In this document: piece after piece, positions 14,367 to 50,929 of the stretch
How positions within the stretch are numbered: position 1 is the stretch's first letter
Layout of the letters: each line of letters begins with the position of its first letter
Origin: an uncultured Alphaproteobacteria bacterium
GTDB taxonomy: Bacteria > Pseudomonadota > Alphaproteobacteria > MPNO01 > DASWLB01
Direction of reading: 5' to 3'
Assembly: GCA_963775315.1 (NCBI GenBank)
Contig: CAVZIN010000007.1
Location: 393,193 to 457,192, forward strand
Length of the DNA stretch: 64,000 bases
The notes under the pieces: generated by a model
Database searches by the model: none
What the model was told of the DNA's origin: nothing
Seen by the model: only the letters and a program-made list of their open reading frames with translations
Position numbers and translations under genes: made by a program

Positions 14367-14891
14367 TCAGATGCCGTCGTCGCGCGACGTGGCGCCGGCG
14401 CGCTGCACCTCGCCCGCCTGCCAGGTCGCGGCGAGCCGGCGTGCGAGCTCAATGGTGACGAACAGGAAGCCGATGGGAATGGCCGCAATTGGCAGCCATT
14501 CGGGCAAGGTGAACGATTTGTAGAGCTGCGTTCCCGAGCGCCAGACGTCATAGGTCGCCCCGGCCGCGAACCACAGGAAGATCGCCGACACCGCCGTCGC
14601 CAGCGTCTGGGCGAGGATGGTCACCCGCCACGCCCAGCGCGGCGGCAGCAGGTCAGTCGCGATGTCCACCGTGACGTGGCGGCCGAGCCTGGTGACGTGT
14701 CCGACGCCCGCCATGGCGAGGATCAGGATCGCGTACTCGATCACCTCGTTCATGCCGTAGATGCCGGCGGTGCCGGCATCGCGCAGCGCCACGTCCGCGC
14801 CGATCGCGACCGCGACCGCGCCGACGATCACACCCGGCAACAGGCCGAGCAGATCGATCAGCCGGTCGTAAGCCGCGATCAGCGCGCGCAT
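14367..14891 (-). CDS. dctQ: TRAP transporter small permease subunit
   Basis: ORF 14367..14891 minus. 174 aa, 4-TM DctQ-like. Lies between dctP and dctM. Confidence 0.85.
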   Translation of the reverse strand: MRALIAAYDRLIDLLGLLPGVIVGAVAVAIGADVALRDAGTAGIYGMNEVIEYAILILAMAGVGHVTRLGRHVTVDIATDLLPPRWAWRVTILAQTLATAVSAIFLWFAAGATYDVWRSGTQLYKSFTLPEWLPIAAIPIGFLFVTIELARRLAATWQAGEVQRAGATSRDDGI

Positions 14892-14919
14892 GTTAACCGT
14901 CCGTCCGGCCGCCGCTATA

Positions 14920-15891
14920 CTAGTTCGACAGCAGCTTCTCGAGCTTCGGCCCGTTCACCGGATCGCGCTTGTTGACCTCGGCCCAGAGCGAATCGTGCGC
15001 GAGCTTGTGGAAGGTCTTGGCGTCGGCCGGCGAGAGGTCGATGGTCTTCACGCCTTCCTTGTCGAGCTCCGCGCCCATCGCCTCGTCCTCGGCGAGCACC
15101 TTGGGCCCGCGCACCGACCACAGCCACTCCATGTTCTTGTCGAGAAGCCCCTTCTGAGCCGCGTCGAGCGAGTTCCAGGTCTTCAAGTTCATGAAGTAGG
15201 CGAGCGAGGCGTCGTAGAAACCGGGCTCGATGCGGTACTTGGTGACCGGGATCCAGCCCGACAGCTTGATCTGGTTGTTGACGTTGCCGTAGCCCTTGAC
15301 GATGCCGCGCTGCATCGCGTCGAACGTGTCGGTCAGCGGCAGCATCACCGGCTGGGCCCCCAGCGCGTCGAACAGCGGCTTGTAGGTGCCGGACGAGCGG
15401 AGCCGCAGCCCCTTGAAGTCGGCGAGCGTCTTGACGGGCACGTTGGTGAACACGCGATAGTGGATGCCGGCGCCGTCCTGGCCCAGGAAGTGGATGTTCG
15501 ACTTGTTGAGCTGGCTCTCGAGCAGCGCATAGGCGCCGTTCTTCACCTGCTCGTGGATCGGCACCTCGGCGGCGGCGAGCCCGGTGACAATCGGCGCCAA
15601 GCGCTGGACGTAAGAGGCCGGCACGACGGCGATGTCGACGATGCCGTTCTTCACGGCATTGGCCATCTGCGGCGTCGGGATCGCGGCCGGTCCGAGGATG
15701 GGAAGCTGGATCTGCAGCACGCCCTTGCCCTCGTCGTTCACCTTGGCGACGAAATCCTTGAGGGCGAGGTAGATCACCGAATCGACGGTGTTGAAGGCGA
15801 GCAGCTTGACGGTCCGCTCGGCCGCCGAGGCGGGACCGGCCAGCGCCATTGCCGCCGCGCCGCAGAGCAGCGGAAGCCATTTCTTCATCAT
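14920..15891 (-). CDS. dctP: TRAP transporter substrate-binding protein
   Basis: ORF 14920..16059 minus. Start placed at MMKKWLPLLCGAAAMALAGPASA (signal peptide). DctP family. First gene of the dctPQM operon. Confidence 0.85.
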   Translation of the reverse strand: MMKKWLPLLCGAAAMALAGPASAAERTVKLLAFNTVDSVIYLALKDFVAKVNDEGKGVLQIQLPILGPAAIPTPQMANAVKNGIVDIAVVPASYVQRLAPIVTGLAAAEVPIHEQVKNGAYALLESQLNKSNIHFLGQDGAGIHYRVFTNVPVKTLADFKGLRLRSSGTYKPLFDALGAQPVMLPLTDTFDAMQRGIVKGYGNVNNQIKLSGWIPVTKYRIEPGFYDASLAYFMNLKTWNSLDAAQKGLLDKNMEWLWSVRGPKVLAEDEAMGAELDKEGVKTIDLSPADAKTFHKLAHDSLWAEVNKRDPVNGPKLEKLLSN

Positions 15892-15919
15892 ATCCTCCCT
15901 GATCGCCGCGTCCGCGAAC

Positions 15920-15939
15920 GCGGCACGCAATTGCGCCGC
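15920..15939. promoter_or_regulatory. Palindrome GCGGCACGCAATTGCGCCGC upstream of dctP (candidate operator)
   Basis: Near-perfect 20-bp inverted repeat with a perfect core CGCAATTGCG. It sits about 30 bp upstream of the dctP start, in the dctP/MFS divergent intergenic region. Confidence 0.3.
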
Positions 15940-16113
15940 AGGATGATGTGCGTCGAGCGGACCTGTCAATTGCCGCGCGCGTCCTCTGCCATCGCGCGCC
16001 GCGCCGAAACGCGCTATAGCGGGCGGCCGCCGCGCAAGGGACCGATCCGCCATGCCCATCCGATCCGGCTTCGTTGCCCGCGCCCTCGCCGCGCGGGACG
16101 GGCGCTAGCGCCG

Positions 16114-17355
16114 GTGCCGCAGCCCGGCCAGCCGCGCGCGCCCGGGCGGCTGTTCGCCGTCGCGCTGGCGTCGATCACCGTAATCGGCCCGCTCGCGGTA
16201 CATCTGTTCCTGCCGGCGATGCCGGCGGTGAAGCGGGATTTCGCGGTCTCCGAGTTGGTGGCGCAGCTCACCCTCAGCGTGCCGCTGTTCGGCATGGCGT
16301 TCCTCACTCTCGCTTACGGCTCGCTCTCGGACCGCTACGGAAGGCGCCCGACGCTGCTGTGGGGGATGGGGCTGTTCCTTGCCGGCACGGTTGCGTCGCT
16401 GATCGCGCAGAGCATCTGGCTGTTCATTGCCGGGCGGCTGTTGCAGGCGGCCGGGGCGGCGGCGGGGACGGCGCTGTCGCGCGCCATTGCCCGCGACGCC
16501 TATGGCGAGGACAGGCTGGTCAAGGCGATCGCCTACCTGACGATGGCCTACACGATCGGGCCGATGGTGGCGCCGCCGCTCGGCGGCGCGCTGGTCGATC
16601 ATTTCGGCTGGCGCGCCCTCTTCCTGCTGGCCCTGGGGGCGGGCGTGCTTGTCACGGTGCTCGCTTGGTTCGTGATCTACGAGACGCACCGCCCGAAGCG
16701 CGCGGTCGGCGAGGCGCTGTCGGTCGCGGCGAGCTACGTTCGGCTCTTCTCCAGCGCGCGCTTCACCGGCTTCGTCTGCCAGTCCGGCTTCTCGTCCGGC
16801 GCCTTCTTCGCGATCGCCGTGTCGGCGACCTACCTGATGCGCGACACGCTGCACCGGTCCGCGACCGAGTACGGGCTGTTCTTCCTCGGCATGCCGCTCG
16901 CCTTTACCTGCGGCACGTTCCTGGCCGGCCGGCTGTCGGGCCGGGCGGGAATCGAGAATATGGTGCTGACCGGCTCGCTGGTCTCGATCGTCGCCGTGTT
17001 CGTCCAGGCGGCGCTGGTGGTCGGGGGGCGGCTCGACCCCTACGTGATTTTCGTGCCGGGAATGGTGGTGACCTTCTCGCAGGGGATCGCGCTGCCCAAC
17101 GCGCAGGCCGGCGCGATCCGCGTCGTGCCGCACCTCGCCGGGACGGCCGCAGGGATCGGCTCGTTCATGTCGCTGTTCTTCGCGGCCGTCCTGACCGAGC
17201 TGGTGGGCGTGTTCGCGGACGGCACGCCCTACCCGATGGTGGCGCTCGCCTCGGCCTCGGCGACGCTGATGCTGATCGCGGGCGCGACGCCGTTCGTGCT
17301 CGCAAGGCGCGGCTGGGCGCGGCTCACGCCTTCCAGTCCACCTTCGCCCCGATGA
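16114..17355 (+). CDS. MFS transporter (Bcr/CflA drug-efflux-like)
   Basis: C-terminal 2/3 of the frame of ORF 14890..17355. 12-TM MFS with motifs LFAVALASITVIGPLAVHLFLPAMP and GSLSDRYGRRPTLL. Probable GTG start near 16114. The upstream 400 codons of the ORF are filler antisense to dctP. Confidence 0.75.
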   Translation: MPQPGQPRAPGRLFAVALASITVIGPLAVHLFLPAMPAVKRDFAVSELVAQLTLSVPLFGMAFLTLAYGSLSDRYGRRPTLLWGMGLFLAGTVASLIAQSIWLFIAGRLLQAAGAAAGTALSRAIARDAYGEDRLVKAIAYLTMAYTIGPMVAPPLGGALVDHFGWRALFLLALGAGVLVTVLAWFVIYETHRPKRAVGEALSVAASYVRLFSSARFTGFVCQSGFSSGAFFAIAVSATYLMRDTLHRSATEYGLFFLGMPLAFTCGTFLAGRLSGRAGIENMVLTGSLVSIVAVFVQAALVVGGRLDPYVIFVPGMVVTFSQGIALPNAQAGAIRVVPHLAGTAAGIGSFMSLFFAAVLTELVGVFADGTPYPMVALASASATLMLIAGATPFVLARRGWARLTPSSPPSPR

Positions 17356-17860
17356 GGATGAAGGCGATGGTGCAAGGCGCGTCGCCGCGGTTCGCCCAGG
17401 CATGGTTGCACGCGCCCTGGACCACCACGTCGCCGGCCTTGAGGTGCACCTCGTCCTCGTCCACCAGCATGTCGATCTCGCCAGAGAGGATGAGAGCGTA
17501 GTCGATCGAATGCGTCCGGTGCATGCCGGGGTGCTTGCCCTTGCCGAGCCGTCCGACCTCGACGCCGGTCGAACCGCGATGCGCGTCGGCGTCCGCCTCG
17601 CTGCGCGGCGGGTAGCTCTTCTCCGGCGGGATTTCCAGGATGCGGAAGATCGAGCCGGCGAGCGGCGGGTTGGTGCCCGTGATTTTCGCGGTGGGATCCG
17701 CCGTGCCCGGCAGATCGGCCGCCTCCTCCATGAACCAGATCTGCTGCGAGCGCGCGCCGGTGCGCGGGCGCACCTGCTCCTCCGGCACGTCGTCCCGCAG
17801 GATCACCGCCTTCCCGGCCGCGTCGTGACCGGTCACGACGCGGCGCACGTTGAGGGTCAT
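17324..17860 (-). CDS. Cupin domain protein (paralog A)
   Basis: ORF 17324..17860 minus. Conserved cupin C-terminus (..HPGMHRTHSIDYALILSGEIDMLVDE..VHLKAGDVVVQGACNHAWANRGD.PCTIAFILIGAK). Tandem paralog of the next gene. Confidence 0.7.
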   Translation of the reverse strand: MTLNVRRVVTGHDAAGKAVILRDDVPEEQVRPRTGARSQQIWFMEEAADLPGTADPTAKITGTNPPLAGSIFRILEIPPEKSYPPRSEADADAHRGSTGVEVGRLGKGKHPGMHRTHSIDYALILSGEIDMLVDEDEVHLKAGDVVVQGACNHAWANRGDAPCTIAFILIGAKVDWKA

Positions 17861-17911
17861 GTCATGCTCCGATCTCGCGGCCCCGGGCCGCTCCCTTCAT
17901 CTAGACCCGGC

Positions 17912-18451
17912 TCAGTAGCCCTGACCCGCCCACGGCACCTTGGCGCCGATCAGGATGAAGGCGATCGTGCAGGGCTTGTCGCCGCGGTTCGCCCAGGCGT
18001 GGTTGCAGGCGCCCTGGACGACGACGTCGCCCTTCTTCAGATGCACCTCCTTGTTGTCGTCGACCAGCATGTCGATCTCGCCGTCGAGGACGAGCGCGTA
18101 GTCGATCGATTCGGTGCGGTGCATGCCGGGGTGGCGCGCCTCGGGCCCGCCGAGCGACACGCCCATCGATTTGCGATGTTCGGCCGCGTTGGCGACGTGC
18201 GGGGCGGTCTTGTCCGGGGGGAACTCGATGATGCGGAAGATCGAGCCGTCCAAGGGCGGCGGCACCTTGGCGATCTTCTTCGCCGTGTCCTCGGTGGTCA
18301 TCACCGCCGGGGTCGTGTCGGTCATCCAGACATTGACGGTCTGGCTGCCGCCCGGGGCCCGCTGGATCACCGGCGGATGGTCGTCGATCGCGATGATCGC
18401 CTTGCCGTTCTTGTCGTCGGCCGAAACGACCCGTCGGACGGAGAGTGCCAT
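17912..18451 (-). CDS. Cupin domain protein (paralog B)
   Basis: ORF 17912..18451 minus. About 55-60% identical to paralog A over the full length. The C-terminal cupin barrel is nearly identical. Confidence 0.7.
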   Translation of the reverse strand: MALSVRRVVSADDKNGKAIIAIDDHPPVIQRAPGGSQTVNVWMTDTTPAVMTTEDTAKKIAKVPPPLDGSIFRIIEFPPDKTAPHVANAAEHRKSMGVSLGGPEARHPGMHRTESIDYALVLDGEIDMLVDDNKEVHLKKGDVVVQGACNHAWANRGDKPCTIAFILIGAKVPWAGQGY

Positions 18452-18611
18452 GTTCGTTCCCTTCCCTAGCCTCGCTGCGCCCCTGGCGCGCTGGCCGGAG
18501 TGAACCGGAACCGCGCGCCCGGGTCAATCGGGATGGGAAGGGTAGACTGCACGGGCCGGGGACGAGTGCGATGGACCGGCGTGGCAGGGTCCGGTATGGT
18601 CGGCGCGACAC

Positions 18612-20316
18612 ATGGACGGCTCGGCCACGCTGGGGGAACGCGCTGTGGTGAAGCTCGGCTCGATGGGCACTGCGGACGAGCGCAACCGCATTTGCCGCAT
18701 CGCCCTCGGTACGGCGCTTTGGGGCGCGCTGGCAGCATCCGTCCTGGCCGTGCCGCTCACCGGCTACCTGCTCGGAACGTTCCATTATACCCATGATTGG
18801 GGCGCCGCTCATGGGGCCGTGGTGGCCCGGAACTTCTGGCATTTCGGCATCGCGCAGCTCGGCGGGTTGCCGTATCACAACAATCCGCCCTTCACGAACC
18901 CGCCGGACGTTTATCTGAATTGGCCGCCGCTCGGAACGATCCTACTTGCGCTGGCCTATATCGATCGGCGGCCCCACGGTCCTAACGACGCATATGTACG
19001 GCGCAGCCATTCACCTGGCGATCGCCGGGCTCGTGTTCTGGATCGTGGACCGGGCGCGGGACCGCGTCTCGGCGGCGGTCGCGACCATCGTCTACCTCAA
19101 CGCCCCGCTAGTGGCGCGCTACGGCCATCTCGATCTCGGCCATTCGGCCCTGCTGTTTTGCATGCTGGCGCTTTGGTGCGTAGCGCGCGCAGCGGATGAG
19201 ACAGCCAGCCCGCAGGCCAAATTCCGGCTGAATGCGATCGGGGCCGTCTCGTTCGCGCTGGCCGAGCTTTGCACCTGGGAACCGGTCCTCGCGGTGCCGG
19301 GAATTGCGGCTTACGCCCTCCTGGCCCGCGACCGGCGCCTGTTCCGGTCGGCGATACTATTGGGAATTGCGGGAACGGTCGCCGTGGCGGCTGTCTTTGC
19401 TCTCTACGCCAGCCAGTCGCACGATTTCCTTGCTCGCATCTTGCTGCGAATCGTATATCGCGCCGGGTTCGGCAATCCGTACGGCGGCGACACGTCGCTG
19501 ATGGCGTCGCCCTATCTGATCTACGAGCTGGATACGGTCCAGCAGGGATGGTCAATACCCGTCTACATCTTCGACGTGTTCATTCTGCGGCTTTCCGTGC
19601 TCGGCCCCGTCGCAGTCTTCGGCTTGATCCTTGCCCTGTTTGCGCGGGCCTGGCTTTGGCGCGGCACCGGCCGCGTGATCCCCATCGTCTGTGTTGGGCT
19701 TGGGAGCATCTACGTGCTCTGGGCGATCGTCATGCGCAGCCAGATGGAAGGGCACGAATTCGAGGCCCGATTTATCACGCCTCTGGCTGCGCTTTGCGTT
19801 GGGCAACTCGTCTGGCGGCTCAGGACGATGACGTGGCCCTCCATAGCGGATTTGCGCCGAGGCGGTGGCGTCCTCGCCGTCGCCGTGTGCGTCGCGATTC
19901 CCGCTGTCGCGATGGTGTCGCGATCCTGGGATACGATCGATTTGATCCGGTACAACCGCGAGGGGCCGGTACGCGACATCGAGTTTCCGAAGGCGATCGC
20001 AAAAATTACGCCGCCCGACGCTATCGTGACTTATCCCGACGTCACTTACGTCCCGGTTTACTATATGAATCGGCACATCGTTCGCGGCATCGCCGACGAT
20101 AAGACCCTTGCTAAATATCGGAGCGCGATCGAGGCGCTTTGCCGCGACTGCCCGATCTACGTGGCGGTACCGAAGGGCGACATCGACAAGTTTTCCGGCC
20201 TCGATGTCGAAAGGAATGGAAAACCGGTCCCTCCCTGGGGGTGGATCGTGCCGTTGCGCACCTTCCCTCCGAAGGGTGTCGCCGCTCCCGCGCCGGCGAT
20301 TGGCAAGCCGGGCTAG
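18612..20316 (+). pseudogene. GT-C fold membrane glycosyltransferase (PMT_2/ArnT/YkcB-like), apparently disrupted by a frameshift near 18955-18965
   Basis: ORF 18612..19199 (frame 0) contains the hallmark loop-1 region ..FHYTHDWGAAHG..NWPPLGTILLALAY, then becomes Arg/Pro-rich filler. ORF 18946..20316 (frame +1) continues sensibly straight after (SIGGPTVLTTHMYGAAIHLAIAGLVFWIVDRA... with many TM helices and a C-terminal periplasmic domain). The two halves abut within a few codons. Confidence 0.55.
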
Positions 20317-20385
20317 CCGCGTGGCGCGGCTGGCGGGAGGAAGGGAACGTATGGCGCGGCGTCTTGTCGGGCGCGTGTGCGTCGC

Positions 20386-21648
20386 ATGACGATCCGGCTA
20401 CTCGTTACCACCACGACCTTTCCGTCGTTCGTGCCGGGGCACGTGACGCCGCCCTTCGTTTATGAGCTGTCGCGCCATCTGGCGCAACATCCCGATTTCG
20501 AGCTGATCGTGTCCACGCCGCACATCCGCGGTGCGGCGAGTTGCGAGGCTCGCGACGGGATGCGAATTCGTCGCTTCCGCTACGGCTTCGCCGCACTGTG
20601 TGACGGGGCAATCCTGCCCAACATCCGCAATAATCGTTGGCTCCTCGCCGAAGTCCCGTTCCTCCTCGCGTTCGCCTTCTTCGACTTGGTTCGCACGATC
20701 CGTCGCGAGCGTATCGATGTGGTTCATGCCCATTGGATCATCCCGCAGGGGTTGATCGCGGTCGCGGCCAAGATATTGCTGCGCGGCCGGCCGCTTCGTA
20801 TCATCTGCACGAGCCATGGCGCCGATGTCTACGGCCTTCGCTCGCTCGCACCGCTGAAGCGCTGGATCCTGGCGCATTGCGACCGCGCGACCGTGGTGTC
20901 GACACAGATGAAGGCAGAGCTGGAGCGTATCGGCGTGTGCATGCCGGGCCCGATCGAGGTCATCTCAATGGGCGTCGACAGCGACCGCTTTGCCCCCGGG
21001 CGCGCTGACGCCGCGCTGCGCCGGCGGTTCGGCATCGACGGCCCGTTCATCCTGTTCGTGGGTCGGCTGGCCGAAAAGAAGGGCGTGCGCTACTTGCTCG
21101 AGGCGATGCCGCCGGTCATCGGCGCGTTCCCGGCGGCCCGGCTGCTGGTTGTGGGCGACGGACCCGAGAAGGCGGCGCTGATGCGCAAGTCGCAGGAACT
21201 TGGCCTCTCCGACCGGGTCGTTTTCGCTGGCGCGGTGCCCAACGACGAGCTTCCGGCCTATTACGCCAGCGCCGACGTATTCGTCGGGCCCAGCATCGTG
21301 GCGCGCGACGGCGACCGCGAGGGCATGCCTGTCGCCTTTGTCGAGGCGATGTCGGCGAGCTGCGTCGTCGTTTCGACGGACCTTCCGGGGATCGAGGACC
21401 TGATCGCCGATGGCGTGTCGGGGTTCGTGGTGCGTCAGGCGGATGCCGGCGAGATCGCCGACCGGCTGCTGCAGGTGCTCGCCGCGCCCGAGCGGCTCGA
21501 CGCAATGAAGCGGCGGGCCCGCGAGGTGGTGGTCGCCCAGTTCGACTGGCGGGTCATCGCCGCCCGCTTCGCCGACGTGCTACGCGCCGCCTATTATTCG
21601 GGCGCGCCCGGCTTTCGGCCTACGAAGCAAAATGCGCCTGAGAACTGA
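20386..21648 (+). CDS. Glycosyltransferase family 4 (GT-B)
   Basis: ORF 20377..21648. GT4 signatures (..ILFVGRLAEKKGVRYLLEAM...VVGDGPEKAAL...EGMPVAFVEAMSASCVVVSTDLPGIEDLI..). Confidence 0.85.
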   Translation: MTIRLLVTTTTFPSFVPGHVTPPFVYELSRHLAQHPDFELIVSTPHIRGAASCEARDGMRIRRFRYGFAALCDGAILPNIRNNRWLLAEVPFLLAFAFFDLVRTIRRERIDVVHAHWIIPQGLIAVAAKILLRGRPLRIICTSHGADVYGLRSLAPLKRWILAHCDRATVVSTQMKAELERIGVCMPGPIEVISMGVDSDRFAPGRADAALRRRFGIDGPFILFVGRLAEKKGVRYLLEAMPPVIGAFPAARLLVVGDGPEKAALMRKSQELGLSDRVVFAGAVPNDELPAYYASADVFVGPSIVARDGDREGMPVAFVEAMSASCVVVSTDLPGIEDLIADGVSGFVVRQADAGEIADRLLQVLAAPERLDAMKRRAREVVVAQFDWRVIAARFADVLRAAYYSGAPGFRPTKQNAPEN

Positions 21649-22331
21649 AGCTTTACGAGATTGATATCACCCGCGTCCAAGCGAGCCATACGCCCGACGA
21701 TTTCGAGCGCCAGATAGAGCGCCGAGCGGCTGCGTAAGGGCTCTATGAACCGAGATCGGTTGCTAAGTTGGCGAATGATTGTGAAGGCGGCATCGTAACA
21801 ATGGTGGAGAGTTTCGGGAACTAAACCAGTCGCTTCCATTAAATATACCATTCCAAATGGCGTAAAATTGAACACGCTGAAAGAATGATAAGGCTCAAGA
21901 TAGGCGACCGAGCCGACAAAGTAACCGCCCGGCTTAAGGACGCGCACTACATCGCGCATCAGTGGGTGCGGCTCGCGAACATGCTCGAAAACCTGATGGC
22001 TATAGACGATGTCAAAATAATTCGCCTCATAGGGAAGGTTAATCCCATCGAAGCTGGTCATACCCGGCAAAGTCGCGGACCTTCCCTGCACTTCCGGGGA
22101 GTCTACGATGTCAACTCCCCGCCAAACGACGGTGGGATCTAAAGCGCGGAAGAATGCCGACGAGTTCCCTTCGCCACAGCCTAGATCAAGTACCGCGAGC
22201 CCTTCTCCGTAGCGCGAGTAGACTTCCGAGACAAGAGATTGAGCAAAGACGATCTGTGTGCTTGTCTCGTGCACGAGTTGACGAAGCCGATGGTAGCCCG
22301 GAACGCGCGTAATGGCCGATTTGAGTGACAT
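21594..22331 (-). CDS. Class I SAM-dependent methyltransferase
   Basis: ORF 21594..22424 minus. ATG at 22331 preceded by GGAGG. SAM-binding motif VLDLGCGEGNSS and ...VLKPGGYFVGS. GC about 50%, well below the window average. Confidence 0.75.
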   Translation of the reverse strand: MSLKSAITRVPGYHRLRQLVHETSTQIVFAQSLVSEVYSRYGEGLAVLDLGCGEGNSSAFFRALDPTVVWRGVDIVDSPEVQGRSATLPGMTSFDGINLPYEANYFDIVYSHQVFEHVREPHPLMRDVVRVLKPGGYFVGSVAYLEPYHSFSVFNFTPFGMVYLMEATGLVPETLHHCYDAAFTIIRQLSNRSRFIEPLRSRSALYLALEIVGRMARLDAGDINLVKLQFSGAFCFVGRKPGAPE

Positions 22332-22389
22332 CCAATTTTTTCCTCCGTGGCCGGATCGAGCGGCGCCGGTTGAGGCACTCGGTAGCAAG

Positions 22390-23199
22390 CTATACATCGT
22401 CCGTTCGAACATGTGCCACAGCAATATAGCCTTCTCCGAGATCTGATCTATAGAATACCCTTTGAAAAAGACAAAATGCCCCTAATATTAGGGCTGAAAA
22501 GCGGTTCGCGTAGACTGCAAAATGCTTGGCCTCGCTTAGCCGGTCAACGCCACTCACTGAAGTGCGGCCTTTTCTATCGTCTCGATCTAATTTTCTTTTC
22601 GAAAGCTTTGTACGAGAAATTGCCTCACGTATTGGGCGAAGTAAAGTCTGGAGAGGAAATCCGTAAGACCGTAGCTCAAGAAGCTCAAGGTGTGCCCCGG
22701 AAACGAGGGACTGAATATCTGCTTTGTCATAACGTCGAACATGCCCGGCCCATTCGTCGGACAAGCCCCAATGATTCCGATGAGCTGGCACCGTTAGGAT
22801 CACTACTCCTCCCGGCTTAAGGCAACGTAGCCAACTCCGCAGAGTTTCGCCGTCTGCTTCGATATGTTCCAGTACTTCTGACGAAAAAATAATATCGTAA
22901 GCGCCCCAGTCCTTTTCGGAAACGTCAGGAGCAATTTTGAATGCGCGTTCATCTCCGGCGTGGAAATGATAGGCAACAGATAACGCAGGAGCGGAGACGT
23001 CGACCCCTTTCCCTACGAACCCAAGACGTTCAAGGTCGAGTAAAAAAGCACCTGATCCGCAGCCGAATTCCAAGACTTTTCCGGGCGGAAACGATGCAAA
23101 CACGTCGATTAATGCTGACCGTCGGAGAATATGAGCAATAGTCGGCACCCAAGGCAGGGAGGTGTCATAAACGCCTAAGATATTCTGGTATCTTATCAT
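22390..23199 (-). CDS. Class I SAM-dependent methyltransferase
   Basis: ORF 22390..23199 minus. VLEFGCGSGAFLLDL...IIFSSEVLEHI...LKPGGVVILTVP (Methyltransf_11/23-like). GC about 48%. Confidence 0.8.
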   Translation of the reverse strand: MIRYQNILGVYDTSLPWVPTIAHILRRSALIDVFASFPPGKVLEFGCGSGAFLLDLERLGFVGKGVDVSAPALSVAYHFHAGDERAFKIAPDVSEKDWGAYDIIFSSEVLEHIEADGETLRSWLRCLKPGGVVILTVPAHRNHWGLSDEWAGHVRRYDKADIQSLVSGAHLELLELRSYGFPLQTLLRPIREAISRTKLSKRKLDRDDRKGRTSVSGVDRLSEAKHFAVYANRFSALILGAFCLFQRVFYRSDLGEGYIAVAHVRTDDV

Positions 23200-23204
23200 C
23201 TTCG

Positions 23205-24164
23205 TTATTTTGAAGTCGATGCGGCAGGTTCTGTTCTATGCAACATCAAGGCGAGCGACATCGGCAGCAAAACGAACATTGCAGTGACGCGCAATAAGGT
23301 AGTCGCTAGGAAGGCTGTCCCGGCCGCTACTCCCACCAAAGGCGCAAGGCCCGCGGCAACTCCTTCGCGGATTCCGAGACCGGCAGGCACAATGGACACT
23401 GCGCTGCCCAATACTCCCGATATGACAAGTGCCGATGCTTGACCGAAAGTGACCTCGCTATTGAAGCATGAGAGGCACAGGTAGGTAATGAAGGCATCCC
23501 CCAAAACCAAAGTAGCGCGGGTTAATATGAGAGAAAGAATCGTATAATATTTTGTGGAAATCTTTCGAATGATTGGAAGAAATAGTGCAAATATTAGGAT
23601 TCCGGCTGCGCAACATGCACCTCCGATCTCTTGGGAACCTAATCGATAAATCCAGTATCCCGCGTAGATGAAGGCGATCGAAAGCCACAACAAGCCAATT
23701 AATAGAGTTACGGTGGTGCCGTGACGGTACGTTGAGCCCGCTGACTTCAAGGCTGCAATACGGACCATCGTACCCCCGGGAAGAGGAAGCATGTTGGCCG
23801 CACTGCCGACTACTGTCGTTTCCACTGCCGTAAAAAATGGAATCCGCTTACCCAACAGTTTGGCAGATAGGGTGAATTCGATTGCGTTAAATACGACGAT
23901 AAAAGGCACCCCAATTCCAGCAACTAAAGCTAGAGGTCGGGGATCGATTCTGGCCAGGAGGTCGGGTTGGGAGCGCACTGAAAAATAGAGTCCGGCCGCC
24001 AACCCAAAGGTGGCAAGTCCCAGAACGGTGTTGCGTAGTTTTCGGTTGTGGAGGAGGCCGTCGTTGGCCTTCGTTGCAACAGTGCTGAAGGTCGCCGACA
24101 CGAATGATTTCAACTTCCGTTCTCCACGCGAACGTTTCCCATTCGGGAGTCTAGATGCTGGCAT
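23205..24164 (-). CDS. Flippase-like membrane protein (lysylphosphatidylglycerol-synthase TM-region family, UPF0104-like)
   Basis: ORF 23205..24164 minus. About 8 TM helices, no soluble domain, composition typical of the LPG_synthase_TM 'flippase-like' family that usually partners GT2 polyprenol-phosphate glycosyltransferases. Its 5' end overlaps the stop of the upstream GT2 by about 55 nt, so the start is uncertain. Confidence 0.65.
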   Translation of the reverse strand: MPASRLPNGKRSRGERKLKSFVSATFSTVATKANDGLLHNRKLRNTVLGLATFGLAAGLYFSVRSQPDLLARIDPRPLALVAGIGVPFIVVFNAIEFTLSAKLLGKRIPFFTAVETTVVGSAANMLPLPGGTMVRIAALKSAGSTYRHGTTVTLLIGLLWLSIAFIYAGYWIYRLGSQEIGGACCAAGILIFALFLPIIRKISTKYYTILSLILTRATLVLGDAFITYLCLSCFNSEVTFGQASALVISGVLGSAVSIVPAGLGIREGVAAGLAPLVGVAAGTAFLATTLLRVTAMFVLLPMSLALMLHRTEPAASTSK

Positions 24165-25156
24165 AATTGCGGGGCGGGGCCCTTGTCGCTAGTTGGTTGC
24201 AAATGACCGTCGTTGTCGGAGGCCAATTCCAGCGCCCGCACCTTCTCCAGCGTGATCTCGATGAGCTGCCGGTTGAAGTTCATCAGGTCGGCAACCAGCC
24301 CCACCATCCAGGCGATAAACGCCATCATCACCAGCACGCTGCCCAGCATGAGCGATTGGACGTGGCCCACGCCGGCGCCCTCGATGTAGTAGACGAGGAA
24401 GCGGACGATGGGGACCAGCCCAAGGATCAGCAGGATCGCGCCGATATAGAAGAACACCCGCAGAGGCTGGTACATCGCGTACATGCGCACGATGGTGGTG
24501 AGCTGGCGCTCGATGAAGCGCGGGATGCTCTTGAACAGGCGCGAGTCCCGGGTCTTCGGGTTGGTCTCCACCGGGACGGAGAGGACCGCCATGTGCTTCT
24601 TGCCCGCCTGGATCAGCATCTCGGTCGTGTAGCTGAACGGCGAGACGATATTGAGGCGGATGGCCGCGTCGCGCGATATGGCGCGGAAGCCGCTGACCGC
24701 GTCGGGAATGTCGATGCCGGCGAGCCGCTTGACTACGGCGCTGCCGAGACCCTGCAGCCTCTTTTTGAACGGCGAGAAATGGCCGATGCGCCCCGTCCGC
24801 CGGTCGCCGACGACGATGTCGGCCTGGCCGTCGAGAATCGGGCGGATCAGCCTGGGGATGTCCCAGCCGGCGTACTGGTTGTCGCCGTCGGTATTGACGA
24901 TGATGTCCGCCCCGCGCTTCAGGCATTCGTCGAGCCCGACGCGGAAGGTGCGCGCGAGACCGATATTTCGCTTGTTGCGTACGATGTGGTCGATGCCGAG
25001 CGCCCGGGCGACCTCGACGGTCTTGTCGGTCGAGCCGTCGTCGACGATCAGGATCTCGACCGCCGTAATGCCCTCGATGCTGCGCGGGATGTCCGCGACC
25101 GTTTCGGGGAGCGTGTGCTCCTCGTTGAAGCACGGGATCTGGACGATGAGCTTCAT
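24110..25156 (-). CDS. Glycosyltransferase family 2, GtrB/ArnC-like polyprenol-phosphate sugar transferase with C-terminal TM helices
   Basis: ORF 24110..25240 minus. Start at MKLIVQIPCFNEEHTL. Motifs DDGSTD, NTDGDNQY and DAVSGFRA. Two C-terminal TM helices as in GtrB/ArnC/DPM1-like enzymes. Confidence 0.85.
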   Translation of the reverse strand: MKLIVQIPCFNEEHTLPETVADIPRSIEGITAVEILIVDDGSTDKTVEVARALGIDHIVRNKRNIGLARTFRVGLDECLKRGADIIVNTDGDNQYAGWDIPRLIRPILDGQADIVVGDRRTGRIGHFSPFKKRLQGLGSAVVKRLAGIDIPDAVSGFRAISRDAAIRLNIVSPFSYTTEMLIQAGKKHMAVLSVPVETNPKTRDSRLFKSIPRFIERQLTTIVRMYAMYQPLRVFFYIGAILLILGLVPIVRFLVYYIEGAGVGHVQSLMLGSVLVMMAFIAWMVGLVADLMNFNRQLIEITLEKVRALELASDNDGHLQPTSDKGPAPQLCQHLDSRMGNVRVENGS

Positions 25157-25299
25157 CGGGCTGTCCCGGCAAGGCCGAAGCGGTACGGCACGTCCACTCC
25201 CTGCGCTCGAGCGCAGTCTCGCGCGCGATACATGACGCACTCTCGGGCCGGTGGCAAGGGAAGAAGGCCCCGGATGCGCTCCTCTTAGCGTCAGCCGCC

Positions 25300-25596
25300 T
25301 TAATGCAACATGAAGCTTTGGGCCGCGCGCATCTTGCCGGGGCCGATCAGGCGCTGGCTGGTGAGGCGCACGGAATGCAGCTTGCCGTCGAGGTTCGCCT
25401 CCCAGAAGGCGAGGAACTTCGAGAGCGCCGGATAGCGCGGCGGCAGGTCGTAATCCTGCCAGACGTAGCTCTGCAGCAGCTCCGGATGGTCAGGCATGCG
25501 ATAGACGATCTCGGCCGTGGCCAACCGATAGCCGTCCACGAACATGCGCCGCTCGCGCTCGCGCTCCGCCTCGCTTGTCCTCGCCGACCTGGTCCG
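25300..25596 (-). CDS. usg: Usg family protein
   Basis: C-terminal ~98 codons of ORF 25300..25920 minus (MRTRSARTSEAERERERRMFVDGYRLATAEIVYRMPDHPELLQSYVWQDYDLPPRYPALSKFLAFWEANLDGKLHSVRL..) match the small Usg family. The upstream part of the ORF is filler. Confidence 0.65.
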   Translation of the reverse strand, partial: RTRSARTSEAERERERRMFVDGYRLATAEIVYRMPDHPELLQSYVWQDYDLPPRYPALSKFLAFWEANLDGKLHSVRLTSQRLIGPGKMRAAQSFMLH

Positions 25597-25862: not shown

Positions 25863-26183
25863 ATGAAATTCCGACCCCTGCACGACCGCGTCGTCGTACG
25901 CCGCATCGAGGAGGAGGCACGTACCTCCGGCGGCATCATCATCCCCGACACCGCCAAGGAGAAGCCCCAGCAGGGCGAGATCGTCTCGGTCGGCCCCGGC
26001 AAGCGCAACGAGAAGGGCGAGATCGTCGCCCTCGACGTGAAGGCCGGCGACCGGGTGCTGTTCGGCAAGTGGTCCGGCACCGAGGTCAAGATCGACGGCG
26101 AGGAGCTGTTGATCATGAGCGAGTCCGACATCATGGCCGTGTTCGAGGACGCAGGCGAGAAGTCGCGCCGCCGCGCGGCCTGA
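25863..26183 (+). CDS. groES: Co-chaperonin GroES
   Basis: ORF 25863..26183. [46 protein letters not shown]. Confidence 0.95.
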
Positions 26184-26190
26184 TCGCTGA

Positions 26191-27843
<1,653 letters not shown>

Positions 27844-45291: not shown

Positions 45292-46248
45292 TCAGACGAC
45301 CGGCGTGGTCTGGAACGCCTCCGGGTCGGTGACGAGATCGACGAAGGCGTCGTGCATGCCGCCCTCGACCGCCCGGGTGAGTTCGGCGAAATTCCAGTCC
45401 TTCCCTTTGGCGACCGCCGTCCTGACCGGGCGCGGCTGGGAGAACAGCATTACCTCGCGGCCGCGCACCGCGAACAGCTGGCCCGAGACATCCTGCGCTC
45501 CGGGCGAGCAGAGCCAGGCGACGAACGTTCCGACCGGACCGGGGGGCACCTTCATCGCCTGCTCCTTGAAGGCCGCCTGGGCGTCGTTCGCAGGGTGGAT
45601 GCGCTCGACCATGCGGGTGCGGCCCATCGGGGCCACGGCGTTGGCGGTGACGCCGGAGCGGGCCATGTCGAGCGCGGCGATCCGCATCAGCCCCATCATG
45701 CCGGCCTTCGAGGCGGCGTAGGATGCCTGGCCGAAATTGCCGAAGAAGGCCGCGGTCGAGACCATGTTGACGATCCGGCCCCAGCCGTAACCACCGCCCT
45801 CGGCCGCGCCGCGCCCGGACCCGGCGTTCTCGCGCAGCACCGGCGCCGCCGCCGCCAGCAAATAGTAGGCCGCCGACAAGTTGTTGCGGATCACCGCGTC
45901 CCAATGGTGCGGATTGCCCTTGAACAGGAACGCGTCGCGCAGGATCGCGGCATTGTTCACCACGATGTCGAGCCCGCCGAACCGCTCCTTCGCGAGGTTG
46001 ACCGCCTCGGTCGCGGCGGCGGGCACGCTCATGTCCGACGTGTAGGCGGCCGCACCCTCGCCGAGCCTGCCGGCGATCTCCTGGGCCAGCGACGGGTCGG
46101 TATCGGTCCCGTCGACCGAGGTCCCGTTGTCGCAGATCACCACTTTCGCGCCGCGGGCGTGCAGCGCCCGGACCACCGCCTCGCCGATGCCGCGGGCGCC
46201 GCCGGTCACGATGGCCACACGGCCATCCAGCCTGTCGTCGTCGGTCAT
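45292..46248 (-). CDS. SDR family oxidoreductase
   Basis: ORF 45292..46386 minus. Start at MTDDDRLDGRVAIVTGGARGIGEA. Motifs NNAAI and YAASKAG. Confidence 0.8.
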   Translation of the reverse strand: MTDDDRLDGRVAIVTGGARGIGEAVVRALHARGAKVVICDNGTSVDGTDTDPSLAQEIAGRLGEGAAAYTSDMSVPAAATEAVNLAKERFGGLDIVVNNAAILRDAFLFKGNPHHWDAVIRNNLSAAYYLLAAAAPVLRENAGSGRGAAEGGGYGWGRIVNMVSTAAFFGNFGQASYAASKAGMMGLMRIAALDMARSGVTANAVAPMGRTRMVERIHPANDAQAAFKEQAMKVPPGPVGTFVAWLCSPGAQDVSGQLFAVRGREVMLFSQPRPVRTAVAKGKDWNFAELTRAVEGGMHDAFVDLVTDPEAFQTTPVV

Positions 46249-46388
46249 CGCTCCCCCGGTCCCCACTCGCCACCGCGGCACAGTGTAGGTGGCCCAGCCG
46301 CGCTTGTCTCGTGGCCCGGTGCCGGGCCGCTTGATCCGCCGGCCGCCGCACCCAACATATGGACCGATTTTCCCATTCGGATACAAGC

Positions 46389-47243
46389 ATGAGCATGCTG
46401 AAGACAGGCATCCTGCTCGCGGCGCTGACGGCGCTGTTCATGGGCGCGGGCTGGCTGCTGGGCGGGCAGGGCGGCATGGTGATCGCGCTGATCATGGCTG
46501 CCGGCATGAACGCTTTCGCCTACTGGAACTCGGACAAGATGGTGCTGCGCATGTACGGCGCGCGCGAGGTCGACGCGCGTTCGGCGCCGACGCTCTACGG
46601 CATCGTCGCCCAGCTTGCCGACAAGGCCGAGCTGCCCATGCCGCGCGTCTACATCGTCGACACCGACCAGCCGAACGCGTTCGCGACGGGGCGCGACCCC
46701 CAGCACGCCGCCGTGTGTGCGACGAGCGGCATCTTGCGCATCCTCGATTCGGACGAGCTCGCGGGTGTGCTCGCGCACGAGCTCGGGCACGTCCGCCACC
46801 GCGACACGCTGATCATGACCGTGACCGCAACCATCGCCGGCGCGATTTCGATGCTCGCGAGCTTCGCCTTCTGGTTCCGCGGCTCGAGCCGGGACAACCC
46901 GCTCGGGCCGTTCGGCGCGATCCTGGTGATGATCCTCGGCCCGATCGCCGCGATGCTGGTGCAGATGGCGATCTCGCGCACCCGCGAGTATGCGGCCGAC
47001 CGCGAGGGCGCGGCGCTCTGCGGCCATCCGCTGTGGCTTGCCGATGCGCTCGGCAAGCTGGAGGCAGGGGCCGCCCAGATCGCCAACGCGCCGGCCGAGC
47101 AACATCCGGCGACCGCGCATCTGTTCATCGTCAACCCGCTACATGGCGGCGGGCTCGCCAGCCTGTTCGCCACCCACCCGCCGATGGAGGACCGCATCCG
47201 CCGGCTGCGCGAGATGGCGGGGGTCGCGGGCCCGTGGGGGTGA
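46389..47243 (+). CDS. htpX: Zinc metalloprotease HtpX (M48)
   Basis: ORF 46359..47243. [10 protein letters not shown] zinc motif and N-terminal TM helices. The start could be 46359 or, more likely, 46389 ([10 protein letters not shown]). Confidence 0.85.
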
Positions 47244-48586
47244 GCGACCGGACGACGGAGGCGGTCGATGCCCGTGCGGTCGCGCTCGACCTGCTGCATG
47301 CCGTGCTGGGGCGGCGCATCGCGCTCGACGAGGCGCTGGCGGCGAATCCGGGCCTCGCCGCGCTCGATCCGCGCGACCGCGCCTTCGCCCGGCTGCTGGC
47401 GGCGACAACTCTCCGCCGGCTCGGCCAGATCGATGCGCTGATCGACGCGCGTATGGAGCGGCCGTTGGCGCCGCGCGCGGCCAGGGTGCGCGATGTCATG
47501 CGCCTTGCGGTTGCGCAGCTCGTGTTCCTCGGCACACCGCCGCACGCCGCCGTCGACCGGGCGGTCGCGGCGCTTGGCGGGCGGAACGCCGTGTTCCGCG
47601 GCCTCGCCAATGCCGTGCTGCGCCGCATCGCGCGCGAAGGCGGAGCGGAGGCGGCGGCGCAGGACGCGACCCGGCTGAATACGCCCGACTGGCTGTGGGA
47701 CTCGTGGCAGGCTGCCCATGGCGACGCGGCGGCACGCGCCATCGCCACCGCCCATCTCGACGAAGCGCCGCTCGACCTCACCGTCAAGTCCGATCCCGCC
47801 ACCTGGGCGGCGCGGCTCGATGCCCTGATCCTGCCGACCGGGACGCTGCGCCGCGCGGCCGGCGGGGCGGTGCCCTCGCTCCCCGGCTATGGCGAGGGGG
47901 CGTGGTGGGTGCAGGATGCGGCCGCGGCCCTGCCGGCGAAGCTGCTGCTCGCGGCGCTCGGCGGCGGGCAGGGAGCACGCATCGCCGATTTCTGCGCGGC
48001 GCCGGGCGGCAAGGCGGCTCAGCTCGCCGCCGCCGGGGCAAGCGTAACGGCGCTCGACATATCGTCCACGCGGCTCGCGCTGGTGCGGGAGAACCTCGCC
48101 CGGCTCGGGCTCGATGCCGACTGCCGGGCACAAGATGCCCGGCGCTTCGTACCCGACACGCCGCTGGACGGCGTGCTGCTCGACGCCCCCTGCTCGGGCA
48201 CCGGCACGATCCGCCGCCACCCCGATATCGCGCGTCTAAAATCTCCGGACGAAGTCACGCGGCTCGCACCGCTGCAGGCCCAGCTCATCGACGCGGCGAT
48301 CGCCGCGCTGCGCCCGGGCGGGGTGCTGGTCTATGCCGTCTGCTCGCTGCAGCCGGAGGAGGGGCCGGCCCAGGTCGCAGCGGCGCTCGCCCGCACGCCG
48401 GGCCTTGCCCGCCTGCCGATCCGGCCCGAGGAGCTCGGCACCGATGCAGCGGCGCTCGCGCCCCTGCTCACGCCCGTGGGCGATCTCCAGACTCTCCCCT
48501 GCCACCTCGCCGACCTCGGCGGGCTCGACGGGTTCTACGCCGCGCGGCTCGCAAGGGGCCAGCTTGCCCGAGTCCGGGGAAGCTGA
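47240..48586 (+). CDS. rsmB: 16S rRNA (cytosine-C5)-methyltransferase RsmB/Sun family
   Basis: C-terminal part of the frame of ORF 46289..48586. GTG at 47240 overlaps the htpX stop (GTGA). NusB-like N-terminus, then [12 protein letters not shown]...[15 protein letters not shown]...[12 protein letters not shown]. Confidence 0.8.
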
Positions 48587-48598
48587 TACGAACGCAGC

Positions 48599-49261
48599 GT
48601 GCAGCAGAAGGTCCGCATCGCCCCCTCGATCCTCTCGGCCGACTTCGCGCGGCTGGGCGAGGAGGTGCGTGCGGCGGCCTCGGCGGGCGCCGACTACATC
48701 CATATCGACGTGATGGACGGGCATTTCGTGCCCAACATGACGCTCGGCCCGGTGGTGGTGAAGGCGCTGCGGCCGCATTGCGACCTGACCTTCGACGTCC
48801 ATTTGATGATCGCCCCGGCCGACCCGTACATCGCGGCCTTCGCCGAGGCCGGCGCCGACATCATCACCGTCCATCCCGAGGCGGGACCGCACCTCCACCG
48901 CACCGTCCAGCTCATCCATTCGCTGGGCAAGAAGGCGGGAGTCGCGCTCAACCCGGCGACGCCGGTGGAGCACGTGACGCACCTTCTCGGCGACGTCGAC
49001 CTGATCCTCGCCATGACGGTCAACCCCGGCTTCGGTGGGCAGGCTTTCATCGAGCCGATGCTGGAGAAGGTCGCCCATCTCCGCCACATGATCGACGCGA
49101 CCGGCCGTGCCATCGACCTCGAGGTCGACGGCGGCATCAACGACCGCACCGCCCCGCCCGTCACGAAGGCCGGTGCCGACGTGCTGGTGGCCGGCTCCTA
49201 CGTGTTCGATGGCGGACCGAACACCTACCCCGCCAAGATAAGCAGCCTGCGCGGCCCATGA
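48599..49261 (+). CDS. rpe: Ribulose-phosphate 3-epimerase
   Basis: ORF 48599..49261. ..[17 protein letters not shown]...[12 protein letters not shown]... Confidence 0.95.
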
Positions 49262-50913: not shown

Positions 50914-50929
50914 GCCGGCGCAGGCGCGA

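Follow-up and report, generated by a model that had tools for sequence, protein, structure and literature searches.

Gene Content of the Variable Segment

The locus described here lies in a 64-kb window (the whole stretch of DNA that was analyzed) from a Rhodospirillales-like uncultured soil alphaproteobacterium, whose GroEL is 85–88% identical to the nearest named sequences (Stella/Allostella and Rhodospirillaceae SYSU D60014). It comprises a segment of ∼6.8 kb, between a cupin gene and usg, that encodes the elements of a putative three-component periplasmic glycosylation system, namely a glycosyltransferase (GT) of family GT2, a stand-alone protein with an MprF-type flippase domain, and a GT-C-fold glycosyltransferase. 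These are accompanied by a GT4 glycosyltransferase and two S-adenosylmethionine (SAM) methyltransferases, MT1 and MT2 (Table 1). A preliminary description of this DNA, made from the sequence alone, had presented the segment as a horizontally acquired island.

Nucleotide similarity to the related genome L005, as detected by blastn, stops at position 18537 and restarts at 25298, and the flanks on either side are 85–88% identical. Within the segment, the genes are arranged in two convergent units. On the plus strand, the GT-C gene is followed after 60 nucleotides by the GT4 gene. On the minus strand, downstream of usg, are the genes for GT2, the flippase-domain (LPG_synthase_TM) protein, MT2, and MT1, which overlap or sit only a few bases apart.

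Table 1. Features of the variable segment and its flanks (positions in the window)
Feature	Position	Strand	Remarks
Second cupin gene	17324–17860	−	
Cupin gene, conserved left flank	17912–18451	−	Cupin_2
Variable segment	18538–25297		Without nucleotide similarity to L005
ArnT-fold GT-C gene	18612–20316	+	567 residues once repaired; one extra base at ∼18960
GT4 (GT-B fold), cytoplasmic glycosyltransferase	20377–21648	+	Glycos_transf_1, 135 bits; Glyco_transf_4, 73 bits
MT1, class I SAM methyltransferase	21594–22424	−	Methyltransf_11, 57.8 bits; start codon uncertain; low-GC core
Low-GC core	21650–24200		∼50% GC by composition; flippase-like gene and two methyltransferases
MT2, class I SAM methyltransferase	22390–23199	−	Methyltransf_23, 70.7 bits; low-GC core
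Stand-alone MprF-flippase-domain protein (UPF0104/PplT/"flippase-like")	23205–24164	−	LPG_synthase_TM (PF03706), 53.7 bits; cutoff 33.4
Polyprenyl-phosphate glycosyltransferase-type GT2	24110–25156	−	Glycos_transf_2, 82 bits
usg, conserved right flank	25300–25575	−	Usg, 122.8 bits
groES	25863–26183	+	
groEL	26209–27843	+	

Properties of the Encoded Proteins

A start at 25156 is more likely for the GT2 gene than one at 25240, and the resulting 348-residue form is the one on record. DXD motifs (IVDDG and TDGDNQ) and two C-terminal hydrophobic helices can be read from the translation. The best NCBIfam models (AglJ, PpgS, PgfS, a haloarchaeal dolichol phosphate (Dol-P)-hexose transferase, and ArnC) all scored below their cutoffs; the AglJ equivalog (TIGR04182) did not reach its cutoff of 325 with 104.3 bits, yet was the top-scoring family. 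Among proteins of known structure in the PDB, the best relatives were the Pyrococcus Dol-P-mannose synthase (E = 9.5e-17), ArnC (∼1e-9), and GtrB (2e-5). With a GT-A domain, DXD motifs, and a C-terminal anchor, GT2 has the features expected of the enzyme that charges polyprenyl phosphate in a three-component system, and such a role is predicted for it.

The flippase-like protein (319 residues) consists of an eight-transmembrane (8-TM) membrane domain only. Its AlphaFold2 (AF2) model (pLDDT 88, 26 homologues) gave significant Foldseek matches in the PDB to MprF structures exclusively (TMq 0.54–0.63, E from 3e-5 to 6e-4). The Pfam score and the MprF flippase-domain fold together place the protein in the UPF0104/LPG_synthase_TM/PplT family; the NCBIfam model TIGR00374 was not reached (25 versus 43.2). 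The C-terminal aminoacyl-phosphatidylglycerol synthase domain (DUF2156) is absent from the 319 residues, and bifunc_MprF scored 16 bits against a cutoff of 600. No open reading frame (ORF) of the segment encodes a GtrA, SMR (ArnE/F), or MATE/Wzx-type small flippase, and the LPG_synthase_TM/UPF0104 protein is the sole polytopic product that is not a glycosyltransferase. Its closest homologues are at most 48% identical.

The GT-C gene is represented by two ORFs in different frames, 18612–19199 and 18946–20316, the coding parts of which are 18612–18959 (ORF1) and 18961–20316 (ORF2). Homologues are single ORFs, typically of 510–560 (∼530) residues, and their alignment to ORF2 begins only at approximately residue 100. 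Given that their N termini align to ORF1, including the invariant N90, Y101, and P105, the frame is taken to be broken by one extra base (TAT[A]TCG). At this site, the family reads WPPLYPILLSAVF-SIFG and the window protein reads WPPLGTILLALAY-SIGG. Once repaired, the protein has the matching residue at every invariant column (N90, Y101, P105, W222, and H488) of a 66-sequence family alignment in which it is itself included. A word-indexed search had returned only the deposited, truncated 440-residue product and thus suggested an orphan; this was rejected, because an exhaustive HMMER scan yielded 196 cluster representatives, the best of them 40% identical.

The AF2 model of the repaired GT-C (pLDDT 91.1, pTM 0.91) clearly assigns the GT-C fold. 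Its top Foldseek match was ArnT (E = 4e-8, TM ∼0.6), followed by AglB, STT3, PglB, ALG12, AftA, and DPY19, with the oligosaccharyltransferases AglB, STT3, and PglB at a TMq of ∼0.5; the family profile also matched ArnT (5EZM) with an E value of 2e-6. By Pfam, the domain calls of the preliminary description hold for GT2, LPG_synthase_TM, GT4, and both methyltransferases. For GT-C the call holds by fold, but the repaired protein stays under the PMT_2 (PF13231) gathering threshold of 26.1 bits, with 24.6 bits (19.8 for ORF2 alone). PMT_2 was matched at E < 0.01 by 54 of the 66 family members (best, 9.8e-13). As judged from these scores, the window GT-C is a distant, superfamily-level relative of PMT_2 (GT39/GT83-like) and not a curated member.

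The remaining proteins are less specific in their relationships. No NCBIfam equivalog reached its cutoff with GT4. The PDB and NCBIfam matches of MT1 and MT2 were generic for the Rossmann fold, with weak matches to phospholipid and phosphoethanolamine N-methyltransferases. A single full-length relative was found for MT2; it is 33% identical and is encoded beside a flippase homologue in Kordiimonas (L018).

Composition of the Segment and Occupancy of the Slot in Related Genomes

In 500-nucleotide windows, the GC content is 0.49–0.55 at ∼21.6–24.2 kb and 0.66–0.71 around it; taken together, positions 21.65–24.2 kb have ∼50% GC, compared with ∼68%. The 2-kb bin 22001–24000 has a GC content of 0.512, and all other bins fall between 0.635 and 0.731. 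When compared with all 2.5-kb windows of the 64 kb, the interval 21251–23750 is the sole strong compositional outlier, with a robust z of −6.4 for GC and of −5.0 for the correlation of its tetranucleotide usage with that of the whole window. The fall from ∼67 to ∼50% GC at 21.65–24.16 kb noted in the preliminary description is thus borne out by both measures. The left edge of the low-GC patch is abrupt, at ∼21650, the meeting point of the convergent GT4 and MT1 genes, and the right edge is a ramp at 24100–24500, within the 3′ end of the GT2 gene. The GC content at third codon positions (GC3) follows the same division. Host genes have values of ∼0.87–0.96, to which GT2 (0.87) and GT4 (0.83) are close; GT-C has 0.67–0.78; and the MT1 (0.58), MT2 (0.44), and flippase-like genes lie at 0.44–0.58. 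The low-GC core is the most recently replaced, allele-specific part of the cassette.

The hallmarks of an integrative island (integrase or transposase, tRNA/att target, direct repeats) were not observed. There is no tRNA gene in the 64-kb window, no flanking direct repeat above chance, and no integrase or transposase among the adjacent genes scanned, which agrees with what the preliminary description had reported for the flanks. Promoter and terminator scans likewise gave nothing above chance. A megablast search of 18–26 kb against plasmids returned groES as the only match and therefore pointed to no plasmid or island source.

To place the segment in context, five relatives (L005, L006, L007, L084, and L085) were compared; the search began with the cupin beside the segment, for which four further long contigs carry relatives of at least 90% identity. 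Their flanks are well conserved, with identities of 95–96% for GroEL, 91–93% for the cupin (L005, L007, and L084), and 80–85% for Usg; in L006, the left-flank cupin gene is conserved at the nucleotide level. Between these flanks, every genome examined holds a different locus on a common GT2/GT-C theme. In the window, GT-C and then GT4 face GT2-flippase-MT2-MT1. The slot contains GT2-MT-PMT_2 in L084; a GT2 fragment, a 306-residue ORF, and a PMT_2 fragment in L007; and a remnant GT2 N terminus with unannotated ORFs in L005. In L006/L085, PMT_2, a GT4 N-terminal remnant, and DUF354 face GT2 (63% identical)-AsnB-MT-MT-GT4-LPG_synthase_TM, which is the same two-operon architecture as that of the window. 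Proteins of the segment range from undetectable to 63% identity in the relatives, and each relative has its own GC dip at the slot (0.43–0.59). L005 and L007 differ in slot content even though their flanks are 97–99% identical. The window's allele was itself recovered on a 4-kb metagenome contig (L001), 98.6–99.5% identical over window positions 20180–24227, from the same sample that gave the L006 and L007 alleles.

The slot thus combines conserved flanks with non-homologous, low-GC content among close relatives, as is typical of hypervariable cassettes. Given that relatives hold varied loci in it and that the sample with the L001 copy of the window's allele also contains other alleles, the region is a resident hypervariable cassette site, not a one-off insertion. 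A classical, horizontally inserted strain-specific genomic island would account for the atypical composition and for closest flippase homologues that are at most 48% identical and found in distant taxa, and in Ruegeria a copy of the cassette has insertion sequence (IS) elements on both sides. Such an island is nevertheless very improbable here, and its strain-specific insertion is largely refuted. The usg/cupin slot of all five relatives is occupied by GT2/GT-C-themed loci, the GC3 of GT2 and GT4 is near that of the host, the segment is devoid of integrase, tRNA, and direct repeat, and the GT2 gene and the GT4 N terminus are shared with L085 at 63–66% amino acid identity. The insertion put forward in the preliminary description is not, therefore, what the relatives show. 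The opposite view, that of a core locus conserved in close relatives, is correct for the site but not for its gene content. Replacement of alleles by homologous recombination is compatible with the lack of tRNA, repeats, and integrase together with the semi-conserved GT2 and GT4 ends.

A remnant in L085 (574–816) corresponds to window positions 20386–20616. It is an 80-residue ORF, 66% identical to GT4 residues 4–80, after which an unrelated DUF354 gene follows. This remnant is the scar of a recombination event and shows that a mosaic junction lies within GT4.

The genes neighboring the segment encode cupins, major facilitator superfamily (MFS) and tripartite ATP-independent periplasmic (TRAP) transporters, Usg, and GroESL. 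Some ORFs predicted nearby were set aside. Those at 17402–18469 (plus strand) and 17901–18878 (minus strand) are shadow ORFs according to GC3 and Pfam, and an 821-residue ORF at 14890–17355 (plus strand) is an artifact in which a genuine Bcr/CflA-type MFS gene (16074–17355) is read continuously, in one frame, with the antisense strand of a DctP gene (14920–16059, minus strand). Elsewhere in the window, positions 46000–52000 have an unusually high GC content (0.72–0.74), and the map of high-GC3 ORFs has gaps at 47243–48599 and 49261–50930, to which no clean ORF was assigned.

Origin of the GT-C Frameshift

The extra base in the GT-C gene is about equally likely to mark a recent pseudogene or a long-read assembly error, since sister assemblies also carry core genes broken by indels. 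Were the frameshift genuine, then periplasmic transfer would have been lost and the segment would be the recently inactivated remnant of a decaying locus, a reading that is compatible with the modification locus proposed below and to which we give somewhat less than an even chance. It draws on the single extra base that splits GT-C, at a site (TATATCG) that is not a homopolymer, on the 440-residue truncated form being the gene on record, and on the alleles of relatives, which also look fragmented. By contrast, both GT-C halves remain open, the invariant family residues are all kept, and the other genes of the segment are all intact. Furthermore, sister assemblies from the same project contain many indel-broken core genes, with GroEL split in L007, and the comparison of L001 with the window required 10 gap openings in 3.9 kb. 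In either case, the module cannot be called complete, as it had been in the preliminary description, with the GT-C frame broken by one extra base as assembled.

Programmed frameshifting or phase variation at 18960 was considered and rejected, because no slippery or repeat tract that could give a 1-nucleotide shift is present; TATATCGATCG holds only 2- and 4-nucleotide repeats. Split or truncated core genes in the sister assemblies were located at L007:4018–5615, L084:10001–10255 and 14768–15544, and L085:5872–7592 (GroEL in two pieces and fragments of cupin, DctM, and AsnB). L001 departs from the window mainly by indels, which points to project-wide long-read indel noise.

Related Cassettes in Other Species

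The distribution of the genes was assessed with the flippase family as anchor and one genome per species, which gave 75 loci; partners were counted at 74 of these by clustering all ORFs within 10 kb. The loci belong to Rhodobacterales, Sphingomonadales, Kiloniellales, Hyphomicrobiales, Parvularculales, several Gammaproteobacteria, Acidimicrobiia, and Sumerlaeota, and among the cultured carriers are Parasphingorhabdus marina, Ruegeria halocynthiae, Roseibium salinum, and Vibrio albus. The combination, which the preliminary description did not regard as a standard annotated system of alphaproteobacteria, is not rare among them, and an archaeal equivalent was described in 2015 (PMC5898192). The most constant partner of the flippase is a window-type GT2 (59 of the 74 loci, mostly 50–68% identical to that of the window), followed by GT4 (43/74). 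Some GT-C is present in at least 38 loci. A polytopic GT-C family of ∼555–570 residues is found in 29 and a second PMT_2-like protein in 9. A methyltransferase occurs in 25 and a UDP-GlcNAc 2-epimerase in 16. Approximately 27 loci have a pyruvyl transferase, from one of two families (14 and 13). Spacing between the genes is tight, and they are co-directional, for example in the order GT2-GT-C-GT4-(pyruvyl-transferase)-flippase-MT in Parasphingorhabdus and GT-C-GT2-MT-GT4-MT-flippase in a metagenome-assembled genome of Kiloniellales.

Relatives of GT2 mostly adjoin a GT-C family different from that of the window. The ∼570-residue family has an invariant N-W-D-E motif (NWDEF) after its first helix and weakly matches GPI mannosyltransferase I; it is related to the window GT-C family in an hhalign comparison (probability 97.5%, E = 5e-12). 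When the window GT-C family was used as anchor instead, 80 soil and peat metagenome loci (L086–L165) were found, and partners were counted over 81 loci. The main form is MT-GT-C-UbiA-HAD (27 UbiA, 21 MT, and 19 HAD among the 81; e.g. L097:1825–6444), and a second form, in 14 loci, is FAD-oxidoreductase (PRK07208)-GT-C-acyltransferase (Acyl_transf_3). The UbiA proteins scored best, below cutoff, on decaprenyl-phosphate phosphoribosyltransferase (DPPRS) models. The main form, in which no flippase gene is obvious, resembles a three-component system of the pentofuranose type and recalls such systems described previously (PMC11127046). A search of the window for a UbiA or HAD partner of its GT-C found neither.

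Several loci differ in their surroundings or in the form of their genes. In a Ruegeria sp. (L002:3310–12053), a GT2/GT-C/GT4/pyruvyl-transferase/MT/flippase cassette lies between IS240-type and IS110-type transposase genes, so that in some lineages the cassette may be mobile as a composite element. In R. salinum (L003:684–10897), the cassette directly follows Tad/Flp-pilus assembly genes (T2SSE and two T2SSF), and pilin glycosylation is a possible role in this single case. In Microthrixaceae (L080:12073–14406 and L081:477–2816), proteins of 777–779 residues encoded near flippase and GT2 homologues contain a region 31–32% identical to MT2 and may be methyltransferase fusions in actinobacterial versions of the cassette. 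Clusters of methyltransferases linked by BLAST across the loci were not accepted as orthologues, as identities of 22–37% correspond to class I fold similarity.

In archaea, a neighborhood of AglD-like GT2, UPF0104 (arCOG00899), and PMT/STT3-like arCOG00563 genes has been reported, with UPF0104 as the predicted flippase (Makarova, Galperin & Koonin 2015, PMC5898192), and GT-A/UPF0104 fusions (AglD) are known (PMC5898192; preprint 10.1101/2022.03.11.483950). The window has the same three protein classes, and the highest-scoring model for its GT2 is that of archaeal AglJ. Unlike the archaeal neighborhood, it is bacterial, its flippase is not fused to GT2, and GT4 and methyl- or pyruvyl-transferases are added; both systems are predictions.

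An archaeal-style pathway can be envisaged, in which an AglJ-like GT2 would start a short glycan on polyprenyl monophosphate, GT4 would extend it, methyl- or pyruvyl-transferases would cap it, the MprF-type flippase would flip it, and GT-C would transfer it en bloc to protein or glycan. In Haloferax, a methylated glycan is built on dolichol monophosphate by AglJ, AglG, AglI, AglE, and AglP. Besides the AglJ match, such a pathway would suit the self-contained, single-strand cassettes of GT2, GT-C, GT4, methyl- or pyruvyl-transferase, and flippase, the alternation of methyl- and pyruvyl-transferases between them, the lack of an initiating phosphoglycosyltransferase or Wzx/Wzy among the recurrent families of the flippase loci, and the resemblance of the GT-C model to AglB, STT3, and PglB. 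It is unlikely all the same, with an AglJ score far from its cutoff, a single-sugar transferase (ArnT) as the top structural match of GT-C, GT4 and methyltransferases missing from many flippase loci, and the window GT4 in the opposite operon from GT2. If correct, it would constitute a bacterial counterpart of euryarchaeal dolichol-monophosphate N-glycosylation, in which the GT-C represents a new family and whose cassette recurs in no fewer than 59 further species, and would give stand-alone bacterial UPF0104 proteins their first assigned cargo outside glycerolipids.

Alternatively, the segment could be a glycolipid module like GpgSDF of Pseudomonas aeruginosa (GlcN-PG) or HexSDF of Clostridioides difficile (HNHDRG), each of which pairs a stand-alone UPF0104/MprF-like flippase with a cytoplasmic glycosyltransferase. 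Here, GT4 or GT2 would glycosylate a phospholipid or diacylglycerol, the methyltransferases would modify the head group, the flippase would move the glycolipid to the outer leaflet, and GT-C would be unrelated or defunct. GpgF and HexF both belong to UPF0104, have the gene for a glycolipid glycosyltransferase next to their own (GpgS being a GT4), and are proposed to flip the glycolipids so formed (PMC12713373; PMC10128005). The window GT4 weakly matches the GlcNAc-PG synthase model (GlcN_PG_synth, 74.7 bits), the weak methyltransferase matches include phospholipid and phosphoethanolamine N-methyltransferases, and GT-C is frameshifted. This alternative is nonetheless quite unlikely. The GT4 score is far below the GpgS cutoff of 480 bits, and it is the polyprenyl-phosphate-type GT2, not GT4, that accompanies the flippase most regularly, with GT-C also recurrent. 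The solved relatives of GT2 are all polyprenyl-phosphate enzymes. GpgSDF and HexSDF make membrane glycolipids with a deacetylase and without a polyprenyl-phosphate GT2 or GT-C, whereas no ORF of the segment encodes a deacetylase, and its GT4 and flippase genes are in convergent units.

Discussion

On balance, the region probably represents the local allele at a hypervariable locus for envelope-glycan modification, in a lineage of uncultured Rhodospirillales-like alphaproteobacteria, and probably encodes a three-component module for periplasmic glycosylation in which the flippase is of the MprF type. In this model, GT2 would act at the cytoplasmic face and load polyprenyl (undecaprenyl) phosphate with a sugar taken from a nucleotide sugar, an activity suggested by its fold family. 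The MprF-flippase-domain protein would then move the lipid-linked sugar to the periplasmic face, a role proposed because of its homology to the MprF flippase domain, the AglD-type GT-A/UPF0104 fusions, the archaeal neighborhood of GT2, UPF0104, and PMT/STT3-like genes, and its tight genomic coupling to the GT2 family. The ArnT-fold GT-C would pass the sugar to an acceptor in the periplasm, for which lipopolysaccharide (LPS), O-antigen, or another envelope glycan is the most likely candidate. On the cytoplasmic side, GT4 and the two SAM methyltransferases may lengthen the lipid-linked sugar and add O-methyl groups to it, or else their target may be the acceptor glycan. As in O-antigen and LPS cassettes, alleles would probably be swapped without the help of a mobile element, through homologous recombination within the conserved flanks and within the GT2 and GT4 ends, which are semi-conserved. 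With GT-C out of frame, the system would have been inactivated only just now, unless the extra base is an assembly error.

Several observations weigh against this model. The GT-C/GT4 and GT2/flippase/MT genes form two convergent transcription units and not a single operon, and GT-C is frameshifted as assembled. A GT2 is found near window-type GT-C genes in just 7 of the 81 GT-C-anchored loci. Given that the GT-C relatives sit mostly with DPPRS-like UbiA and HAD genes, the usual donor of this family may differ from the GT2 product and may be a polyprenyl-phospho-pentofuranose. For the same reason, namely that GT-C relatives usually pair with a UbiA/DPPRS-like enzyme and not with GT2, the donor link from GT2 to GT-C in the window is one that we infer. 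The three-component logic advanced in the preliminary description is reasonable in itself, and GT2 and this flippase family do co-occur in 59 of 74 independent loci. The cargoes of UPF0104 proteins supported in the literature are phospholipids or glycolipids only, and none is a polyprenyl-linked sugar (10.1101/2022.03.11.483950, PMC12713373, PMC10128005). Neither wzx/wzy, wzm/wzt, waaL, and other LPS or O-antigen genes nor an initiating transferase were found in the segment or among the ORFs scanned in 2.2–29 kb, so that the polymer assembly and export genes of hypervariable O-antigen/LPS-like loci are lacking. Finally, the activities, substrates, and acceptor of the proteins are predictions.

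The segment resembles the Gtr (GtrA/GtrB/GtrC), Arn (ArnC/ArnEF/ArnT), CsbB/GtcA/YfhO, and Citrobacter pentofuranose (GT136) systems in that a membrane-anchored GT2, a candidate lipid flippase, and an ArnT-fold GT-C are encoded in a strain-variable cluster. It differs from characterized three-component systems, in which the flippases are of the GtrA, SMR, or MATE type (PMC11127046, PMC13390465), in that its candidate is an 8-TM MprF-flippase-domain protein. Unlike Gtr- and Arn-type systems, it also includes GT4 and two methyltransferases as integral parts, and its GT-C family lies below the Pfam threshold.

In its population behavior, the locus recalls the Xanthomonas etfA-metB LPS locus, where hypervariable low-GC cassettes contain flippase-like-domain, UbiA, FAD-oxidoreductase, methyltransferase, and GtrA genes. 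The fixed site, interchangeable content, below-average GC, and mosaic ends are common to both. Unlike the Xanthomonas-type O-antigen/LPS cassettes, the window segment is only 6.8 kb long and is without wzm/wzt, wzx/wzy, and an initiating transferase and, for that reason, has the appearance of a module for glycan modification and not of a complete O-antigen cluster. The acceptor is probably LPS or another surface glycan, as favored by the O-antigen-like behavior, although the segment itself contains no LPS genes.

The scheme of GT2, flippase, and GT-C is already well known. An MprF-type flippase in the three-component role was predicted for archaea in 2015 and is implicit in the COG label "AglD2/YbhN flippase" (PMC12713373, PMC5898192). 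What is new is a widespread, compact bacterial cassette that couples UPF0104 to a polyprenyl-phosphate-type GT2, GT-Cs of two uncurated families, GT4, and capping enzymes, as well as one case, from an uncultured soil lineage, in which such a cassette occupies a hypervariable site similar to an O-antigen locus.

For the window itself, the "island" becomes one allele of a resident variable locus, in which the transferase gene is either broken or mis-assembled. More generally, two GT-C families have been defined that Pfam misses above threshold. To our knowledge, few bacterial membrane proteins that still lack a cargo assigned by experiment are as widespread as the stand-alone UPF0104/PplT proteins. 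Their repeated coupling to GT2 and to GT-Cs provides a testable hypothesis, namely that some UPF0104 proteins flip polyprenyl-linked sugars.

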